DNA of 14,373 nucleotides, from IMG/VR virus record IMGVR_UViG_2534681703_000013, one strand, 5' to 3'. The notes under the pieces are model-generated. The model saw only the letters and a list, made by a program, of their open reading frames with translations, was not told the origin of the DNA and made no database searches. Shown piece by piece: positions 1 through 14,373 of the stretch (its first letter is position 1; every line of letters starts with the position of its first letter). This DNA comes from a virus (taxonomy: Duplodnaviria > Heunggongvirae > Uroviricota > Caudoviricetes). The translations under genes and the position numbers were made by a program.

Positions 1-938
1 GCTCATTGCGGACAAAGACCTTTGCCACTTTCTCAATATCACCCAGCGACCCGACGTTCTCCGGCTTGCCGCCCATCAACTGAAAGGGGATGCGGTGCGC
101 GTCCAGCAGGTCAGCGGCGCTGGCTTTTTTGATATTAAAAAAATCGTCCTTCGTTGCCACTTCACTGAGCGGGATAATTTTAATGCCGTCAGCTTTCCCC
201 TGCGGGGCATAGAGAAACAGATTTTTAAAGTTGTTGCGGCCTTTCGACTTAACCATGTTTTCGCGAAGCATTTCGTATATCGTTGCGGTCCTGCACGGCA
301 TCGGTGACGTACATGATATATCCGGCATGAGCGCCGTTTTCGTAATACTTGCGGCGGAACAGCGTGGCCGACTCATTCAGCCAGGCAGAGTTAAGGGCGC
401 TGAGATATTCCGGCAGGCCGTACAGCTCCTGATTAATATCCGGCTCCAGCAGGTGAAACACGGAGCCGGGCGCGAAAGGTGTCGGCTCGTTGAAGGACGG
501 CACCCACCAGTAAACATCCTCCTCCACGCCACGGCGGGTATATTTTGCCGGTGAGGTTTCCAGTCTGATGACCTTACCGGTGGTGCTGTAACGCTTTTCC
601 AGAAACGCATTACCGAACACCAGAAAATCCAGCACAAAGCGGCTGAAATCCTGCTGGGAAAGCCACGGATGCGGGATAAATGTTGAGGCCAGAATATTAC
701 GTTTGACGTAAATCGGTGAGCTGTGATGCACGGCAGCACGCAGGCTTTTTGCCAGACCGGTAAAGCTGACCGGCGGCTCATACCATCTGCCGTTACTGAT
801 GCACTCGACGTAATCCAGAATGTCACGGCGGTCGAGTACCGGCACCGGCTCGCCAAAGGTGAATGCCTCCATTTTCGGGGCGCTGGCGGTCATTGTTTTT
901 GCCGCAGGTTGCGGTGTTTTCCCTTTTTTCTTGCTCAT
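1..938 (-). pseudogene. Q: Portal protein gpQ, partial at window start and frame-disrupted. N-terminal 229 codons are ORF 249..938; the C-terminal part continues in another frame from about 274 to beyond position 1.
   Basis: ORF track 249..938 (MSKKKGKTPQPAAKTMTAS...) matches recalled P2 gpQ N-terminus (P2 gpQ about 344 aa from memory). My translation of the minus strand 1..274 in a second frame gives an open, protein-like continuation (YEMLRENMVKSKGRNNFKNLFLYAPQGKADGIKIIPLSEVATKDDFFNIKKASAADLLDAHRIPFQLMGGKPENVGSLGDIEKVAKVFVRNE...). Start ATG is at 936-938 and shares one base with the P stop (TGATG). Confidence 0.8.
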
Positions 939-2714
939 CAGTAAAACTCCAGAATGGTGGATGTCAGCGGGGTGCTGATACCGGCGGTGAGTGGCTCATT
1001 TAACAGAGCGTGCATGGTCGCCCAGGCGAGGTCGGCGTGGCTGGCTTCCTCGCTGCGGCTGGCCTCATAGGTGGCGCTGCGTCCGCTGCTGGTCATGGTC
1101 TTGCGGATAGCCATAAACGAGCTGGTGATGTCGGTGGCGCTGACGTCATATTCCAGACAGCCACGGCGGATAACGTCTTTTGCCTTGAGCACCATTGCGG
1201 TTTTCATTTCCGGCGTGTAGCGGATATCGCGCGCGGCGGGATAGAACGAGCGCACGAGCTGGAACACGCCGACACCGAGGCCGGTGGCATCAATACCGAT
1301 GTATTCAACGTTATATTTTTCGGTGAGTTTGCGGATGGATTCTGCCTGGGTGGCAAAGTCCATGCCTTTCCACTGGTGACGCTCAAGTATTCTGAATTTG
1401 CCACCGGCCACCACCGGCGGTGCCAGCACCACGCATCCGGCGCTGTCGCCACGGTGTGACGGGTCGTAACCAATCCAGACCGGGCGGGAGCCGAACGGAT
1501 TGGTGGCAAACGGCGCATAGTCTTCCCATTCTTCCAGCGTGTCGACCATGCAGCGTTGCAGCTCCTCGAACGGGAACACCGACGCCTTGTCGTCAACAAA
1601 TTCACACATGAACAGGTTTTTAAAATCGTCGGCGCTGTTTTCACGTTTGAGCTGCTCAATGTCGAACAGTGTGCAGCCACCTTTCAGGGCGTCCTCAATG
1701 GTGACAATCTGCCGCCACTGGCCGTCCGCACAGAGAAGCCCACCGGCAAGGGCGTTATGACTGACGTCGATTTCCACGCGTTCGGCGGCGCTGGCGCGTC
1801 CCCGGTTAAACAGTTCACCTGACCAGAACGGATAGGCGTCGTGCGCCAGCGTGGACGGGGTGGAGAAATAGGTCGAGCGCAGGTGACTCTGTGAGGCCAT
1901 ACCTGATGCCACCTTACGCAGTACCTGAAAATTCGGGATCCAGAAAATCTCGTCGACGTACAGGTCACCGTTATGGCTCTGTGCGGTGTTGGAGTTGGTG
2001 CCGAGAAAAATCAGTTTTGCGCCGTTATTGCCCAGGACAATCGGGTCACCGGTCAGGTCAACGTCAACCAGCCGGGCAAAGGCGATGATGTATTCGCGGA
2101 ACACATACGCCTGCGTTTTACTGGCCGACAGAAAAATCTGGTTATGACCGGTTTTCAGGGCGCGCAGCAGCGCCTCGCGGGAAAAATAAAACGTTGCGCC
2201 AATCTGGCGGGATTTCAGGATATCGCGGATGCGGTGCTCAAGCCCGGCGCGATACCAGTGCAACTGATAGTCGAAAGACTGCTCAAAGAAAATCTGCTCC
2301 AGCTTTTCGATGGCCTCGTCACTGAAAAAATTCTTTTTCGGTTTGCGACGCCCGCCTTTGTTGCGGTTAGCGACGTTCGGATTAAGGTCTGCCTCGTTGC
2401 CGGTCTGACTGTAACGGTTGACCCGTGCCAGTCGTTCAATCTGGCGTCCGAGCAGGTCAATTTCCTTGAAGTCACCGCCGGTTTTCTGCGGTTTGATGAT
2501 GAGCTGGGTCAGCCGCGCTTCCAGACTCATTTCGACACGGCTGATGGGGGCAACGCTGTCCCAGCCGTCGCGCTGTTTCCAGCTCTGCACCGTCGGGCGT
2601 TTCATCTGCAACATGGCGGCGATCCTGCGGCACGGAAAATCCCTGCCCAGTACCGAGCAGCGCCGCCTGACGACGCGGGTCGTGTAAAAGAGTGGTGTCT
2701 GTGGTGATGGTCAT
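938..2714 (-). CDS. P: Terminase large (ATPase) subunit gpP. The 558-codon ORF 938..2614 is intact, but the likely true N-terminus (ATG at 2712-2714, GAGGT Shine-Dalgarno) is in a different frame, implying a 1-bp indel near 2624-2625.
   Basis: ORF track 938..2614 (558 aa) matches recalled P2 gpP. Frame of ORF 2472..2744 reads MTITTDTTLLHDPRRQAALLGTGQGFSVPQ and then the P frame reads IAAMLQMKRPTVQSW, together a helix-turn-helix-like N-terminus. Spliced length about 591 aa versus about 590 recalled for P2. Confidence 0.85.
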
Positions 2715-2887: not shown

Positions 2888-3742
2888 ATGGCAAAAAAAG
2901 TCTCAAAATTCTTTCGTATCGGCGTTGAGGGTGACACCTGTGACGGGCGTGTCATCAGTGCGCAGGATATTCAGGAAATGGCCGAAACCTTTGACCCGCG
3001 TGTCTATGGTTGCCGCATTAACCTGGAACATCTGCGCGGCATCCTGCCTGACGGTATTTTTAAGCGTTATGGCGATGTGGCCGAACTGAAGGCCGAAAAG
3101 ATTGACGATGATTCGGCGCTGAAAGGCAAATGGGCGCTGTTTGCGAAAATCACCCCGACCGATGACCTTATCGCGATGAACAAGGCCGCGCAGAAGGTCT
3201 ACACCTCAATGGAAATTCAGCCGAACTTTGCCAACACCGGCAAATGTTATCTGGTGGGGCTGGCCGTCACCGATGACCCGGCAAGCCTCGGCACGGAATA
3301 CCTGGAATTCTGCCGCACGGCAAAACACAACCCCCTGAACCGCTTCAAATTAAGCCCTGAAAACCTGATTTCAGTGGCAACGCCTGTTGAGCTGGAATTT
3401 GAAGACCTGCCTGAAACCGTGTTCACCGCCCTGACTGAAAAGGTGAAATCCATTTTTGGCCGCAAACAGGCCAGCGATGACGCCCGCCTGAATGACGTGC
3501 ATGAAGCGGTGACCGCTGTTGCTGAACATGTGCAGGAAAAACTGAGTGCCACTGAGCAGCGCCTCGCTGAGATGGAAAACGCCTTTTCCGCACTTAAGCA
3601 GGAGGTGACTGACAGGGCGGATGAAACCAGCCAGGCATTCACCCGCCTGAAAAACAGTCTCGACCACACCGAAAGTCTGACCCAGCAGCGCCGCAGCAAG
3701 GCCACCGGCGGTGGCGGTGACGCCCTGATGACGAACTGCTGA
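2888..3742 (+). CDS. O: Capsid scaffolding protein gpO (284 aa). ORF-track start at 2822 is an upstream extension; ATG at 2888 gives MAKKVSKFFRIGVEGDT.
   Basis: ORF track 2822..3742; internal start gives 284 aa, the length recalled for P2 gpO, with a recognisable N-terminus. Confidence 0.9.
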   Translation: MAKKVSKFFRIGVEGDTCDGRVISAQDIQEMAETFDPRVYGCRINLEHLRGILPDGIFKRYGDVAELKAEKIDDDSALKGKWALFAKITPTDDLIAMNKAAQKVYTSMEIQPNFANTGKCYLVGLAVTDDPASLGTEYLEFCRTAKHNPLNRFKLSPENLISVATPVELEFEDLPETVFTALTEKVKSIFGRKQASDDARLNDVHEAVTAVAEHVQEKLSATEQRLAEMENAFSALKQEVTDRADETSQAFTRLKNSLDHTESLTQQRRSKATGGGGDALMTNC

Positions 3743-3796
3743 CCGGCGTCAGTCCAGGAAAACCTTCACGATTAACCCTTAATTTCAGGAATAACT

Positions 3797-4870
3797 ATGC
3801 GCCAGGAAACCCGCTTTAAATTTAATGCCTACCTGTCCCGTGTTGCCGAACTGAACGGCATCGACGCCGGTGATGTGTCGAAAAAATTCACCGTTGAACC
3901 GTCGGTCACCCAGACCCTGATGAACACCATGCAGGAGTCCTCTGACTTTCTGACCCGCATCAACATTGTGCCGGTCAGCGAAATGAAAGGGGAAAAAATT
4001 GGTATTGGTGTCACCGGCTCCATCGCCAGCACCACCGACACCGCCGGTGGCACCGAGCGTCAGCCGAAGGACTTCTCGAAGCTGGCGTCAAACAAGTACG
4101 AATGCGACCAGATTAACTTCGATTTTTATATCCGCTACAAAACGCTTGACCTGTGGGCGCGTTATCAGGATTTCCAGCTCCGTATCCGTAACGCCATTAT
4201 CAAACGCCAGTCCCTTGATTTAATCATGGCCGGTTTTAACGGCGTGAGGCGTGCCGAAACCTCTGACCGCAGCAGTAATCCGATGCTGCAGGATGTGGCG
4301 GTCGGCTGGCTGCAGAAATACCGCAATGAAGCCCCGGCGCGCGTGATGAGCAAGGTCACTGACGAGGAAGGGCACACCACCTCTGAGGTTATCCGCGTGG
4401 GTAAGGGCGGTGATTATGCCAGCCTTGATGCACTGGTGATGGATGCGACCAACAACCTGATTGAGCCGTGGTATCAGGAAGACCCTGACCTTGTGGTGAT
4501 TGTGGGGCGTCAGCTACTGGCGGACAAGTATTTCCCCATCGTCAACAAGGAGCAGGACAACAGCGAAATGCTGGCCGCTGACGTCATCATCAGCCAGAAA
4601 CGCATCGGTAACCTGCCGGCGGTACGCGTCCCGTACTTCCCGGCGGATGCGATGCTCATCACGAAGCTGGAAAACCTGTCCATCTACTACATGGATGACA
4701 GCCATCGCCGCGTGATTGAGGAAAACCCGAAACTCGACCGCGTGGAGAACTACGAGTCAATGAACATTGATTACGTGGTGGAAGACTACGCCGCCGGTTG
4801 TCTGGTGGAAAAAATTAAGGTCGGTGACTTCTCCACACCGACTAAAGTGACCGCAGAGCCGGGAGCGTAA
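3797..4870 (+). CDS. N: Major capsid protein gpN (357 aa).
   Basis: ORF track 3797..4870; sequence and length match recalled P2 gpN; AGGA ribosome-binding site upstream. Confidence 0.93.
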   Translation: MRQETRFKFNAYLSRVAELNGIDAGDVSKKFTVEPSVTQTLMNTMQESSDFLTRINIVPVSEMKGEKIGIGVTGSIASTTDTAGGTERQPKDFSKLASNKYECDQINFDFYIRYKTLDLWARYQDFQLRIRNAIIKRQSLDLIMAGFNGVRRAETSDRSSNPMLQDVAVGWLQKYRNEAPARVMSKVTDEEGHTTSEVIRVGKGGDYASLDALVMDATNNLIEPWYQEDPDLVVIVGRQLLADKYFPIVNKEQDNSEMLAADVIISQKRIGNLPAVRVPYFPADAMLITKLENLSIYYMDDSHRRVIEENPKLDRVENYESMNIDYVVEDYAAGCLVEKIKVGDFSTPTKVTAEPGA

Positions 4871-4873
4871 CCG

Positions 4874-5617
4874 ATGACGAGTCCCGCACAGCGCCACATG
4901 ATGCGGGTCTCGGCAGCGATGACCGCGCAGCGGGACGCCGCCCCGCTGCGACATGCAACTGTCTATGAGCAGATGCTGGTCAAGCTGGCCGCAGACCAGC
5001 GCACACTGAAAGCGATTTATTCAAAAGAGCTGAAGGCCGCGAAAAAACGCGAACTGCTGCCGTTCTGGTTGCCGTGGGTGAACGGCGTGCTGGAGCAGGG
5101 CAAAGGTGCACAGGATGACATTCTGATGACGGTCATGCTGTGGCGTCTGGATACCGGCGATATTGCCGGTGCGCTGGAGATTGCCCGTTATGCCCTGAAG
5201 TACGGTCTGACCATGCCGGGTAAACACCGCCGCACCCCGCCGTACATGTTCACCGAGGAGGTGGCGCTCGCGGCCATGCGCGCCCACGCTGCCGGTGAGT
5301 CTGTGGATACCCGCCTGCTGACGGAGACCCTTGCACTGACCGCCACGGCAGACATGCCTGATGAAGTGCGCGCAAAGCTGCACAAAATCACCGGTCTGTT
5401 TCTGCGTGACGCTGGTGATGCCGCCGGTGCGCTGGCGCACCTGCAACGTGCGACACAGCTCGACTGTCAGGCAGGCGTCAAAAAAGAGATTGAACGACTG
5501 GAGCGGGAGCTGAAACCGAAGCCGGAGCCGCAGCCAAAAGCGGCCACCCGCGCCCCGCGTAAGACCCGGAGCGTGACACCGGCAAAACGTGGACGCCCGA
5601 AAAAGAAAGCCAGTTAA
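4874..5617 (+). CDS. M: Terminase small/endonuclease subunit gpM (247 aa), with a basic KR-rich C-terminus.
   Basis: ORF track 4874..5617; length and sequence match recalled P2 gpM; starts 4 nt after the N stop. Confidence 0.9.
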   Translation: MTSPAQRHMMRVSAAMTAQRDAAPLRHATVYEQMLVKLAADQRTLKAIYSKELKAAKKRELLPFWLPWVNGVLEQGKGAQDDILMTVMLWRLDTGDIAGALEIARYALKYGLTMPGKHRRTPPYMFTEEVALAAMRAHAAGESVDTRLLTETLALTATADMPDEVRAKLHKITGLFLRDAGDAAGALAHLQRATQLDCQAGVKKEIERLERELKPKPEPQPKAATRAPRKTRSVTPAKRGRPKKKAS

Positions 5618-5716
5618 CAACCGAATGCGCCCCGCGCCAGGGCGGCACGCCGGTCAGTGAGGGTGAATCACCTGACACTGCACCGGCGTCCACCGCCCGA
5701 CTTTTCAGAGGTAGTC

Positions 5717-6226
5717 ATGATGACGCTGATTATTCCGCGAAAGGAGGCTCCCGTGTCCGGTGAGGGTACGGTGGTCATCCCGCAACCGGCAGGCGACGAG
5801 CCGGTGATTAAAAACACGTTCTTTTTTCCCGATATCGACCCGAAGCGCGTCCGGGAACGTATGCGCCTTGAGCAGACCGTCGCCCCCGCCCGTCTGCGTG
5901 AGGCCATCAAGTCAGGCATGGCGGAGACGAATGCGGAGCTGTACGAGTACCGCGAACAGAAAATTGCCGCCGGTTTTACGCGTCTGGCGGACGTCCCGGC
6001 GGACGACATCGACGGTGAAAGCATCAAAGTTTTTTACTACGAGCGCGCCGTGTGTGCGATGGCGACCGCGTCGCTTTATGAGCGTTATCGCGGCGTGGAT
6101 GCCAGTGCGAAAGGCGACAAGAAGGCTGACAGCATTGACAGCACCATTGATGAGCTGTGGCGGGATATGCGCTGGGCGGTGGCGCGTATCCAGGACAAGC
6201 CGCGCTGCATCGTGAGTCAAATCTGA
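5717..6226 (+). CDS. L: Head completion/stabilisation protein gpL (169 aa). ORF-track start at 5657 is an upstream extension; ATG at 5717 (MMTLIIPRKEAP) follows a GAGGT Shine-Dalgarno.
   Basis: ORF track 5657..6226; internal ATG gives 169 aa, the P2 gpL length; stop overlaps the X start (TGATG). Confidence 0.88.
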   Translation: MMTLIIPRKEAPVSGEGTVVIPQPAGDEPVIKNTFFFPDIDPKRVRERMRLEQTVAPARLREAIKSGMAETNAELYEYREQKIAAGFTRLADVPADDIDGESIKVFYYERAVCAMATASLYERYRGVDASAKGDKKADSIDSTIDELWRDMRWAVARIQDKPRCIVSQI

Positions 6227-6429
6227 TGAAGACCTTTGCGCTACAGGGCGACACGCTCGACGCCATTTGTGTCCGGTATTACGGGCGCACTGAGGGCGTG
6301 GTTGAGACCGTGCTCGCCGCAAATCCGGGACTGGCTGAACTGGGCGCGGTGCTGCCACACGGCACCGCCGTCGAACTGCCCGACGTTCAGACCGCGCCCG
6401 TGGCTGAAACTGTCAATCTGTGGGAGTAA
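6226..6429 (+). CDS. X: Tail protein gpX (67 aa, LysM-like).
   Basis: ORF track 6157..6429 contains MKTFALQGDTLDAICVRYYGRTEG... starting at 6226; 67 aa matches P2 gpX. Confidence 0.88.
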   Translation: MKTFALQGDTLDAICVRYYGRTEGVVETVLAANPGLAELGAVLPHGTAVELPDVQTAPVAETVNLWE

Positions 6430-6432
6430 CGC

Positions 6433-6714
6433 ATGACAGCAGAAGAAAAAAGCGTCCTGTCGCTTTTCATGATTGGGGTGCTGATTGTTGTCGGCAAGGT
6501 GCTTGCCGGTGGTGAACCCATCACCCCGCGTCTGTTTATCGGGCGCATGTTGCTCGGTGGTTTTGTCTCGATGGTTGCCGGTGTTGTTCTGGTGCAGTTT
6601 CCTGACCTGTCACTGCCTGCGGTGTGCGGCATCGGCTCCATGCTGGGTATCGCCGGTTATCAGGTGATTGAGATTGCCATTCAGCGCCGCTTTAAGGGCA
6701 GGGGGAAACCGTAA
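6433..6714 (+). CDS. Y: Holin gpY (93 aa).
   Basis: ORF track 6433..6714; hydrophobic segments plus charged C-terminus (RRFKGRGKP); length matches P2 gpY. Confidence 0.9.
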   Translation: MTAEEKSVLSLFMIGVLIVVGKVLAGGEPITPRLFIGRMLLGGFVSMVAGVVLVQFPDLSLPAVCGIGSMLGIAGYQVIEIAIQRRFKGRGKP

Positions 6715-7211
6715 TGCCGGTAATTAACACGCATCAGAATATCGCCGCCTTTCTCGACATGCTGGCCGTGTCCGAAGGGACGGCGAATCATCCGCTGACG
6801 AAAAACCGGGGCTATGACGTGATAGTCACCGGACTGGACGGAAAGCCGGAAATTTTCACCGACTACAGTGACCACCCGTTCGCGCATGGCCGACCGGCGA
6901 AGGTGTTTAACCGTCGCGGTGAAAAATCCACGGCCTCCGGTCGCTATCAGCAGCTTTACCTGTTCTGGCCGCACTACCGCAAACAGCTTGCCCTGCCGGA
7001 TTTCAGTCCGTTGTCACAGGACAGACTCGCCATTCAGTTGATCCGCGAACGCGGTGCACTGGATGACATCCGGGCGGGACGCATTGAGCGCGCCATTTCA
7101 CGCTGTCGCAATATCTGGGCGTCCCTGCCGGGTGCCGGTTACGGTCAGCGTGAGCATTCACTGGAAAAACTGGTCACCGTCTGGCGTACTGCTGGCGGCG
7201 TACCGGCTTAA
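6714..7211 (+). CDS. K: Endolysin gpK (165 aa).
   Basis: ORF track 6714..7211; matches recalled P2 gpK; start overlaps the Y stop (TAATG). Confidence 0.9.
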   Translation: MPVINTHQNIAAFLDMLAVSEGTANHPLTKNRGYDVIVTGLDGKPEIFTDYSDHPFAHGRPAKVFNRRGEKSTASGRYQQLYLFWPHYRKQLALPDFSPLSQDRLAIQLIRERGALDDIRAGRIERAISRCRNIWASLPGAGYGQREHSLEKLVTVWRTAGGVPA

Positions 7212-7225
7212 ACGGAGTAAACACC

Positions 7226-7651
7226 ATGAAGAAATTATCCCTTTCACTGATGCTGAACGTGTCGCTGGCGCTGATGTTGGCACTGTCCCTGATTTACCCG
7301 CAGAGCGTAGCCGTCAATTTTGTCGCTGCCTGGGCGATTCTGGCGACGGTTATCTGTGTGGTTGCCGGTGGTGTCGGCGTGTATGCCACTGAGTATGTGC
7401 TGGAACGCTACGGGCGGGAGCTGCCGCCGGAATCGCTGGCCGTGAAGATTGTCACGGCGCTGTTTTTGCAGCCGGTGCCGTGGCGCAGACGGGCGGCGGC
7501 TCTGGTGGTGATGGTGGTGACGTTTATCTCGCTGGTCGCTGCCGGGTGGATTTTTACTGCGCTGATTTACCTCGTGGCGTCGCTGTTTTTCCGGCTGATA
7601 CGTACGGCCTGCCGTCAGCGTTTTGAGGGGCGGGAACCATGTCAAAACTGA
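7226..7651 (+). CDS. lysA: LysA, membrane protein affecting lysis timing (141 aa).
   Basis: ORF track 7226..7651; multiple hydrophobic helices; position and length as in P2. Confidence 0.85.
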   Translation: MKKLSLSLMLNVSLALMLALSLIYPQSVAVNFVAAWAILATVICVVAGGVGVYATEYVLERYGRELPPESLAVKIVTALFLQPVPWRRRAAALVVMVVTFISLVAAGWIFTALIYLVASLFFRLIRTACRQRFEGREPCQN

Positions 7652-8082
7652 TGATTGTGCTGGTTGTGTTGTTATCACTGGCGGTGGCGGGGCTGTTTCT
7701 GGCGAAGCATGAAAACGCCAGCCTGCGCGCCTCGCTGGACAGGGCGAACAACGTCGCCAGCGGGCAGCAGACGACCATCACCGTGCTGAAAAATCAGCTT
7801 CATGTTGCCCTCACCAGGGCAGACAAAAACGAGCTGGCGCAGGTGGCTCTGCGTCAGGAACTGGAGAACGCCGCGAAGCGTGAAGCACAGCGCGAGAAAA
7901 CCATCACGAGGTTACTTAATGAAAACGAAGATTTTCGCCGCTGGTACGGCGCTGACCTGCCTGATGCTGTGCGCCGGTTGCACCAGCGCCCCGCCTGCAC
8001 CGACGCCAGTGATTGTCCACAACGCCTGCCCGAAAGTGAGTCTTTGCCCGATGCCGGGCAGCGACCCGGAGACGAACGGTGA
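7639..8082 (+). CDS. lysB: LysB, Rz-like inner-membrane spanin (147 aa) with N-terminal transmembrane segment and coiled-coil region.
   Basis: ORF track 7639..8082; N-terminal hydrophobic stretch MSKLMIVLVVLLSLAVAGLFLA; position after lysA. Confidence 0.85.
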   Translation: MSKLMIVLVVLLSLAVAGLFLAKHENASLRASLDRANNVASGQQTTITVLKNQLHVALTRADKNELAQVALRQELENAAKREAQREKTITRLLNENEDFRRWYGADLPDAVRRLHQRPACTDASDCPQRLPESESLPDAGQRPGDER

Positions 8083-8209
8083 TTTAAGTGCCGATATCCG
8101 GCAGCTTGAGAACGCGCTGGCGCGCTGTGCCAGCCAGGTAAAAATGATTAAATACTGTCAGGACGAAAACGATGCTCAAACCCGACAGCCTGCGCAGGGC
8201 GCTGACTGA
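7919..8209 (+). CDS. lysC: LysC, Rz1-like outer-membrane lipoprotein spanin (96 aa), nested in the +1 frame of lysB and extending past it.
   Basis: Within ORF 7802..8209, ATG at 7919 gives MKTKIFAAGTALTCLMLCAGC with a lipobox-like LCAGC; proline-rich after the Cys; 96 aa as recalled for P2 LysC. Confidence 0.8.
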   Translation: MKTKIFAAGTALTCLMLCAGCTSAPPAPTPVIVHNACPKVSLCPMPGSDPETNGDLSADIRQLENALARCASQVKMIKYCQDENDAQTRQPAQGAD

Positions 8210-8639
8210 TGCCGTCACGGTGCTGAAAACTAACCCCGATATGCTGCGGATATTCGTGGATAACGGGAGTATTGCCTCCACGCTGGCGGCGTCGTTGTCA
8301 TTCGAAAAGCGTTACACGCTCAATGTCATTGTGACCGACTTTACCGGTGATTTTGACCTGCTCATTGTGCCAGTGCTGGCGTGGCTGCGGGAAAATCAGC
8401 CCGACATCATGACCACTGACGAAGGTCAGAAAAAGGGCTTCACGTTTTATGCAGACATCAACAATGACAGCAGCTTTGATATCAGTATCAGCCTGATGCT
8501 GACCGAGCGCACGCTGGTCAGTGAGGTGGACGGCGCACTGCATGTGAAGAATATCCCGGAACCTCCGCCGCCGGAGCCGGTCACCCGCCCGGTGGAGCTT
8601 TATATCAATGGCGAACTGGTGAGCAAGTGGGATGAATGA
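8172..8639 (+). CDS. R: Tail completion protein gpR (155 aa).
   Basis: ORF track 8172..8639; matches recalled P2 gpR length and sequence. Confidence 0.88.
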   Translation: MLKPDSLRRALTDAVTVLKTNPDMLRIFVDNGSIASTLAASLSFEKRYTLNVIVTDFTGDFDLLIVPVLAWLRENQPDIMTTDEGQKKGFTFYADINNDSSFDISISLMLTERTLVSEVDGALHVKNIPEPPPPEPVTRPVELYINGELVSKWDE

Positions 8640-9084
8640 GTTTAAGCGTTTTGAAGACCGGCTGACCGGACTTATTGAATCGCTGTCACCGTCAGGGCGT
8701 CGGCGACTGAGCGCCGAACTGGCGAAACGTCTGCGGCAGAGTCAGCAGCGCCGGGTGATGGCACAGAAAGCCCCGGACGGCACACCCTACGCACCACGCC
8801 AGCAGCAGAGCGCCAGAAAAAAGACCGGTCGCGTTAAGCGAAAAATGTTTGCGAAACTTATCACCAGTCGTTTTTTGCATATCCGCGCCAGCCCGGAGCA
8901 GGCATCAATGGAGTTTTACGGCGGGAAGTCGCCGAAAATCGCCAGTGTGCATCAGTTCGGTCTGTCGGAAGAAAACCGGAAAGACGGTAAGAAAATTGAT
9001 TATCCGGCGCGTCCTCTGCTCGGCTTTACCGGTGAGGATGTGCAGATGATTGAAGAGATTATCCTGGCTCACCTCGACCGTTAG
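8632..9084 (+). CDS. S: Tail completion protein gpS (150 aa).
   Basis: ORF track 8632..9084; start overlaps the R end by 8 nt; length matches P2 gpS. Confidence 0.88.
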   Translation: MNEFKRFEDRLTGLIESLSPSGRRRLSAELAKRLRQSQQRRVMAQKAPDGTPYAPRQQQSARKKTGRVKRKMFAKLITSRFLHIRASPEQASMEFYGGKSPKIASVHQFGLSEENRKDGKKIDYPARPLLGFTGEDVQMIEEIILAHLDR

Positions 9085-9116
9085 TTGTGCCATTCCCGAC
9101 ACCTCATCGTCACATT

Positions 9117-9138
9117 GCCGCCGGTATGACCCGGCGGC
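9117..9138 (+). other. Perfect hairpin GCCGCCGG-tatgac-CCGGCGGC (8-bp stem, 6-nt loop) in the S-V intergenic region; possible operon-boundary terminator or 5'-UTR structure of the V transcript.
   Basis: Read directly from sequence; no U-tract follows, so intrinsic-terminator status is uncertain. Confidence 0.35.
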
Positions 9139-9150
9139 ATCCTTCCCGTT

Positions 9151-9786
9151 ATGAACACTCTCGCAAATATTCAGGAACTCGCGCGCGCACTGCGCAACAT
9201 GATCCGCACCGGCATTATCGTCGAAACCGACCTTAACGCCGGTCGCTGCCGTGTGCAGACTGGCGGCATGTGCACCGACTGGCTTCAGTGGCTGACCCAT
9301 CGTGCCGGGCGTTCGTGCACATGGTGGGCACCTTCCGTGGGGGAACAGGTGCTGATTCTGGCCGTGGGCGGTGAACTCGACACGGCGTTCGTTCTGCCGG
9401 GGATTTATTCCGGCGATAACCCTGCGCCGTCTGCGTCGGCGGATGCACTGCATATCCGTTTCCCTGACGGGGCGGTGATTGAGTATGAACCCGAAACCAG
9501 TGCACTCACGGTAAGCGGAATTAAAACGGCCAGCGTAACGGCTTCTGATTCTGTTACTGCCACGGTGCCGGTGGTCATGGTGAAAGCGTTAACCCGCATC
9601 ACCCTGGACACACCGGAGGTGGTCTGCACCAACAGGCTGATTACCGGCACGCTGGAAGTGCAGAAGGGCGGGACGATGCGCGGCAACATTGAACACACCG
9701 GCGGTGAACTCTCATCAAACGGTAAGGTACTGCACACCCATAAACACCCCGGCGACAGCGGCGGCACAACCGGGAGTCCTTTATGA
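9151..9786 (+). CDS. V: Baseplate spike/assembly protein gpV (211 aa).
   Basis: ORF track 9151..9786; matches recalled P2 gpV. Confidence 0.9.
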   Translation: MNTLANIQELARALRNMIRTGIIVETDLNAGRCRVQTGGMCTDWLQWLTHRAGRSCTWWAPSVGEQVLILAVGGELDTAFVLPGIYSGDNPAPSASADALHIRFPDGAVIEYEPETSALTVSGIKTASVTASDSVTATVPVVMVKALTRITLDTPEVVCTNRLITGTLEVQKGGTMRGNIEHTGGELSSNGKVLHTHKHPGDSGGTTGSPL

Positions 9787-10130
9787 CAGCGCGTTATCTC
9801 GGAATGAATCGCAGTGATGGCCTGACGGTCACTGACCTTGAGCATATCAGCCAGAGTATCGGCGATATCCTGCGCACGCCGGTCGGCTCACGGGTGATGC
9901 GTCGTGATTACGGCTCGTTGCTGGCGTCAATGATTGACCAGCCGCAGACCCCGGCGCTTGAGTTGCAGATTAAGGTCGCCTGTTACATGGCCGTGCTGAA
10001 ATGGGAACCCCGCGTCACCCTGTCATCCGTCACCACGGCGCGCAGTTTTGACGGGCGAATGACGGTCACGTTAACCGGTCAGCACAACGACACCGGCCAG
10101 CCACTTTCGTTAACCATCCCTGTGAGTTGA
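9783..10130 (+). CDS. W: Baseplate wedge protein gpW (115 aa).
   Basis: ORF track 9783..10130; ATGA overlap with V; length matches P2 gpW. Confidence 0.9.
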   Translation: MTARYLGMNRSDGLTVTDLEHISQSIGDILRTPVGSRVMRRDYGSLLASMIDQPQTPALELQIKVACYMAVLKWEPRVTLSSVTTARSFDGRMTVTLTGQHNDTGQPLSLTIPVS

Positions 10131-13993: not shown

Positions 13994-14373
13994 TTATCTC
14001 CCTTTCGCTATATAGCAAAGATTAAACCCACCGACGCCTGACATACGGGCTGTAAAACCCGTTCTTGAAGTACCAGTTGAGTTAACTCCATAAGCAGGCA
14101 TGGTTGTTGGAGAAAGCAGAGACTCCTGGATATCTGCCATTGTCAGTGTAATTGATTCGACCCGCGCGGGGAAAGGTAGCGGGAAAACAACATTCGTCCC
14201 TGTCTGTCCAACGGGGAAACCGAAAATACCCCATTGTCGTAATTACCCCTTCCGGCCCCTTACTCCATCCAGATTTAGGAATCGGCCAGTCTGCTGCTCC
14301 AGAGTGCCCCGTTGTAAAACTACTCATATCTGGTACTTGCCCGGTATCCGTTCCGACGTTCCTCGTTGCCGCT
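13994..14373 (-). CDS. Alternative tail-fibre C-terminal exon (Sv'-like), partial: open from beyond the window end. Two frames are open; the likely real C-terminus (...FPVGQTGTNVVFPLPFPARVESITLTMADIQESLLSPTTMPAYGVNSTGTSRTGFTARMSGVGGFNLCYIAKGR) ends at 13994, 4 nt before the Tfa' start.
   Basis: ORF track 14082..14327 is in a frame with no stop up to position 14373 (AATRNVGTDTGQVPDMSSFTTGHSGAADWPIPKSGW...). A second frame is open 13994..14242 and ends immediately upstream of Tfa'. Implies a 1-bp indel between 14085 and 14242. Confidence 0.55.

Follow-up and report, generated by a model that had tools for sequence, protein, structure and literature searches.

A single extra base in the portal gene Q of a P2-like prophage contig is probably a consensus error of a draft assembly

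[quoted passage not shown] The virion model of P2 divides gpQ into wing, stem and clip; the clip residues L240-Y243 form pairs with both the adaptor gpL and the adjacent gpQ subunit (bioRxiv 10.64898/2026.09.14.750843). The sequence analysed here, referred to as the window, carries a P2-like (Peduovirus) prophage whose portal gene is interrupted as deposited. The window is the entire contig AQEY01000031.1 (14,373 bp) of assembly GCA_000355295.1, the 2013 draft genome of Escherichia coli MP020980.2. This enterotoxigenic (ETEC) strain from Bangladesh was sequenced in 100-bp Illumina HiSeq 2000 reads which were put together with Celera Assembler (PMC5469772), and a mean coverage above 200x is stated for the same sequencing project (companion paper PMC4462620). 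The left end of the contig lies inside Q and the right end inside the invertible tail-fibre region.

Assignment of the interrupted gene to the P2-type portal Q, as made in the original prediction, is well founded. Q shares 98-99% nucleotide identity with the annotated portal genes of Peduovirus phages (among them a P2 record, pro483, P24C9), and portal genes at this level are present in more than 1600 complete E. coli genomes. The values are 99.0% with E. coli ECONIH5 and, over 940 bp, 98.3% with phage pro483 and 98.1% with the Peduovirus P2 record. This degree of identity rules out a pattern of ORFs arisen by chance. The synteny is canonical: Q overlaps the terminase gene P and follows directly downstream of it, and the Q-P pair on one strand is divergent from the capsid operon O-N-M-L, which continues on the other as X-Y-K-lysA/B/C-R-S-V-W-J-I-H-G. 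The final 98 bp of Q, corresponding to the last 32 codons, are past the left contig end. A PDB sequence search with the portal returned a weak match to an HK97-type portal (E = 0.04).

P2 prophages are known to possess a hotspot for anti-phage defence genes, and the region next to Q is consistent with it. In related loci that extend further (L138-L147, L001 and L148), a slot beyond the Q stop codon holds differing cargo, comprised of AAA_13 and AAA_15/AAA_21 ATPases, GmrSD, a DNA methylase, a reverse transcriptase with an HTH protein, and a FRG-domain protein. The window ends before this slot.

As deposited, Q does not form a 344-codon ORF, being broken at codon 222, or 64% along the intact 344-aa product, which agrees with the earlier estimate of about two thirds. 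The minus strand at the break reads GAC CGC AAC GAT ATA CGA AAT GCT TCG CGA AAA CAT GGT TAA, translated as ...DRNDIRNASRKHG and terminated by the TAA codon at 249-251, so that an ORF of 229 aa results. The same terminal residues, DRNDI-RNASRKHG, and the same stop at 249 had been read in the original prediction, together with a second, protein-like frame; this minus-strand frame, ...YEMLRENMVKSKGRNNFKNLF..., is indeed uninterrupted down to window position 1. Pairwise alignment with E. coli ECONIH5 and phage pro483 assigns the disruption to a single extra base at position 276, a T on the plus strand and an A on the coding minus strand (TTTCG[T]ATATCG on plus, CGATAT[A]CGAAA on minus). The prediction that one base near 275-277 has to be removed is thus narrowed to exactly this one. 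Its removal restores D-I-E-M-L-R and opens a 312-codon frame which reaches the contig end. The surroundings are an alternating ATAT run lengthened by one base, with homopolymers absent, as had been noted before. Coordinates of all features are collected in Table 1.

Table 1. Positions of the portal and terminase genes and of the private changes in the 14,373-bp window.
Feature	Position	Strand	Description
Portal gene Q of P2-like (Peduovirus) prophage	1..938	minus	codons 1-312 of 344; 98-99% nucleotide identity; Pfam PF04860
Truncated Q ORF	249..938	minus	221 native residues + RNASRKHG, then TAA; GenBank EMX44409.1
Extra base	276		frameshift in Q at codon 222 (intact gene: 344); gap in 136/136 relatives
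Q codon 222 region in the version carrying the extra base			CGATATACGAAA
Displaced Q continuation	1..275	minus	codons 222-312; open; encodes clip strand L240-Y243
Terminase ATPase gene P	938..2714	minus	frame-broken as deposited; only a 441-aa C-terminal product called in GenBank
Private cluster in P	2621..2655		substitution 2621, +C 2624, +C 2648, +CG 2654-2655; P codons about 20-32
Private +C	14238		135 bp from right contig end; breaks minus-strand alternative tail-fibre C-terminal segment (Gp53-like_C) in the invertible region

Residues 240-243 of the repaired product are L-F-L-Y and are encoded downstream of the shift; because of this position, the 229-aa product would be devoid of the clip and of everything beyond it. 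Similarity of the truncated ORF to the Phage_portal family (PF04860) amounts to 27.5 bits, under the gathering cut-off of 39.1, and an intact relative attains 52.6. The low score is due to truncation and not to divergence. Both features uphold the earlier claim that a truncated portal would be non-functional. The repaired Q product differs from intact 344-aa portals in one residue across 312 aa. Past the shift, its protein sequence is 100% identical to those of two related loci, L001 and L148, and all nine nucleotide differences from L148 in this segment are synonymous, with no non-synonymous change.

To assess how widespread the extra base is, 81-bp and 101-bp fragments were compared by megablast with 5426 complete E. 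coli genomes. Among the 1113 genomes matching the 81-bp query, none has the base at 276, every match spanning 80 bases. Likewise, exact scans for a 22-mer that includes the extra base found nothing in GTDB species representatives, IMG/VR and JGI metagenome contigs, and the intact 21-mer used as a positive control is found in at least 120 IMG/VR contigs. In the alignment of related loci, a gap stands opposite position 276 in all 136 that cover it. Alignment to related prophage portals, proposed with the original prediction, thus reveals one extra base against the relatives, and a continuous 344-codon Q ORF is present in 103 of the 106 fetched loci in which Q aligns over its full length. Frame-breaking deletions occur in the remaining three (L008, L017 and L056). 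Other forms of interruption were also observed: in L146 the portal is split into 286 and 55 aa, and in L147 it is interrupted by an IS21-family element with rve and IstB genes.

The extra base in Q is accompanied by further private insertions, so that the contig of 14.4 kb has six inserted bases in total, at 276, 2624-2655 and 14238, and every indel event among them is an insertion. In the terminase gene P, four inserted bases lie within 31 bp, or within 35 bp when the substitution at 2621 is included. They change ...LLYWQGFSVPQIAAM... into ...LLGTGQGFSVPQDRRH... (also written as ...AALLYWQGFSVPQIAAM... into ...AALLGTGQGFSVPQDRRH...) and break the frame. The break is located inside the N-terminal Terminase_5/HTH domain. 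Deletion of the four bases yields a protein of 590 aa, one residue off that encoded by a contig from the same patient (99.8% identity). None of the 1507 complete E. coli genomes has the P cluster, the best match being 95% with 97 of 101 bases aligned. A divergent natural allele was considered as the source of this cluster and rejected, as all 108 relatives are near-invariant there. When base 14238 in the tail-fibre region is deleted, the segment becomes identical to that of L129 in 126 of 126 aa. Possible templates of the inserted bases were sought with 9-mers spanning them on both window strands, and this search disclosed no convincing other copy. All 19 other genes of the contig are full length.

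Exact-protein look-ups in an index of 153 billion genes were used to trace the deposited products and the strain itself. The 229-aa portal product is confined to one contig. The 441-aa terminase fragment matched only error-laden, unrelated assemblies. Among these look-ups (portal, terminase fragment, H, O, N and V), none pointed to a second assembly of the strain, an isogenic sequence or a Logan re-assembly. Tail fibre H was found on 21 contigs, the closest 99.1% identical, baseplate V occurred in non-clonal relatives only, and scaffold protein O, with 2097 blocks, is too common. Three loci of related prophages in other public assemblies, L124, L125 and L127 (GCA_033660215.1, GCA_033660195.1 and Logan SRR29409931), align to the window over 5-12 kb with 13-36 gap openings each; nearly all of their late genes are fragmented, and the same 441-aa terminase fragment arises in them by a different route.

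The window has a rare allele of capsid protein N, for which the index contains exact matches on no more than five contigs. One of them is contig APZN01000100.1 (L148) of APZN00000000, the genome of MP020980_1, the other isolate of the same patient. In L148 both packaging genes are intact (Q of 344 aa and P of 590 aa), and all five inserted bases that fall in the stretch it covers are missing. With 49 mismatches to the window (99.5% identity), L148 cannot serve as a strict isogenic control. The mismatches are clustered at 113-288, 3436-3792 and 9204-9827, with only two from 3800 to 9200, and all of them except the one at 2621 are polymorphisms found in other prophages too. This patchiness points to recombination mosaicism or to duplicate prophages that were threaded differently. 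Accordingly, the isolates either harbour two distinct though related prophages, or the assembler took different paths through two P2-like copies present in each genome. The leftmost site that separates the window from L148, position 113, is roughly a read length away from the contig end. Together with the location of the contig ends, this suggests boundaries of repeats or inversions; the strain may also have a second P2-like prophage, for which no direct evidence was found.

A different kind of length variant separates genes O and N. Between the O stop codon (3742) and the N start codon (3797), the window has a 4-bp deletion at 3747-3754, by which one copy of a GTCA/AGTC tandem is gone in comparison with most relatives. 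L148 has the same deletion, and L141 is deleted at the equivalent place. This looks like a real intergenic polymorphism and not like an error.

To characterize the spectrum of private changes, each window position was scored against about 140 related loci. Where at least 35 relatives cover the window (9 kb), its private differences are limited to five inserted bases and a single substitution next to them. When seven related loci, some in complete genomes and others in drafts, were scored in this way, each had 0-19 private substitutions, and across about 81 kb none had a private inserted base. Because these control loci show private substitutions and no private insertions, variation in this prophage family is substitution-dominated, in contrast to the insertion-dominated window contig. 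In spontaneous mutation of E. coli, substitutions exceed indels about tenfold, and small deletions are more common than insertions. Genuine decay should not result in five independent insertions with at most one new substitution. Signs of relaxed selection are also missing, both downstream of the Q shift, where there is no non-synonymous change, and in the other 19 genes, which are full length.

Combining these results, we consider the extra base at 276 to be a consensus error of the draft short-read assembly and not a change in the bacterial DNA, with a probability of roughly 60%. This explanation is favoured because the changes are private and consist of insertions only, those in P are tightly clustered, the frames downstream are perfect, and the corresponding genes from the same patient are intact. 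It is also favoured because two of the three indel sites are within 300 bp of the contig ends (276 bp and 135 bp), and because the window represents a whole contig of a short-read Celera draft. We suppose that reads from near-identical prophage or tail-fibre sequences may have piled up near repeat boundaries, and that the consensus step would then have added spurious inserted columns at 276, 2624-2655 and 14238. The real prophage would in that case possess an ordinary portal gene of 344 codons and a terminase gene of 590 codons, both intact. Several observations count against a consensus error: Illumina data at more than 200x rarely yield indel errors, the context of 276 is non-homopolymeric, its distance of 276 bp from the contig end exceeds one read (100 bp), L148 is only 99.5% identical, and broken portals are genuine elsewhere (L146, L147, and three of the 106 full-length copies).

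A genuine recent +1 insertion is the strongest alternative, possible but in our view less probable. It would leave a 229-aa portal fragment without the clip and the C-terminal third, hence no portal ring and no packaging, and if the lesions in P were real as well, the prophage would be packaging-dead and freshly decaying. The deposited sequence does carry the base, in a non-homopolymer context and at reportedly high coverage; portals are naturally broken in related prophages, and a lesion in the adjoining packaging gene P suits a decaying element. However, five insertions with at most one private substitution reverse the usual spectrum of E. coli and are also opposite to the pattern in the seven related loci. 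Four events within 31 bp are hardly expected from independent mutation. Furthermore, two of the three sites are close to contig ends, no decay is visible downstream, and the changes were seen in no other genome, nor in the contig from the same patient. The original prediction regarded a genuine mutation as plausible given the non-homopolymer context. The wider evidence, i.e. privacy of the change, proximity of the contig end, the insertion spectrum and the intact downstream frame, does not support this view; the claim is unproven and on balance an assembly error is more likely.

Whether all insertions could be real at once, with the packaging genes Q and P disabled and capsid, lysis, tail and baseplate genes intact, was considered separately and is judged improbable. 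Such a prophage would be a freshly domesticated P2 element in an ETEC lineage, one that lyses the host and releases tails or empty particles in a tailocin-like, non-spreading manner. Programmed recoding, in which +1 ribosomal frameshifting or transcriptional slippage would read past a real extra base to give a full-length portal, is rejected as highly improbable: the downstream frame is intact and a +1 shift at GGT-TAA-G would regain the native frame at KSKGRNN, but the two-frame arrangement is absent from all 1113 genomes and, of the 106 full-length copies, 103 are plain continuous ORFs, so there is no conserved shift site, the nine shifted codons have neither a recognised slippery motif nor an upstream Shine-Dalgarno-like stimulator, and the rescued protein would still contain eight wrong residues.

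Should the extra base be real, the prophage would be unable to package DNA, and the terminase as deposited would be crippled too. The original prediction attributed the block in packaging to the portal; truncation of Q would indeed be disabling, but Q is not the sole obstacle, since P, whose break had not been reported, is also out of frame. A real lesion would place the element among the defective P2-like prophages, which are common and well understood, and the locus is thus ordinary in either case. If the base is a consensus error, the 229-aa "portal family protein" and the 441-aa terminase fragment annotated from this contig, and propagated by GenBank, may not exist in the cell. In scans of draft genomes, frameshifts in conserved phage genes should be checked against contig boundaries, other private indels of that contig and close relatives before a pseudogene is called.

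In comparison with described systems, the locus is closest to the gene for P2 gpQ (PF04860, HK97-type fold), which it resembles in 98-99% nucleotide identity and in gene order; it differs from it in the interruption at codon 222 and in the last 32 codons, which are beyond the contig end. It shares a discontinuous portal with defective P2-like prophages, exemplified by the IS21 insertion in L147, the split gene in L146 and the deletions in L008, L017 and L056. Those lesions are due to insertion sequences or deletions, whereas in the window single bases are inserted, privately and either in a cluster or close to the contig ends, in an element with no further sign of decay. Indel consensus errors of draft and long-read assemblies offer the third comparison. 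They share with the window the features that removal of single bases heals the frames, that the changes are private, and that the frames downstream are perfect; L124, L125 and L127 are extreme cases from the same prophage family. The window differs in having no more than six extra bases over its 14.4 kb and in coming from short-read data, in which errors of this kind are uncommon.
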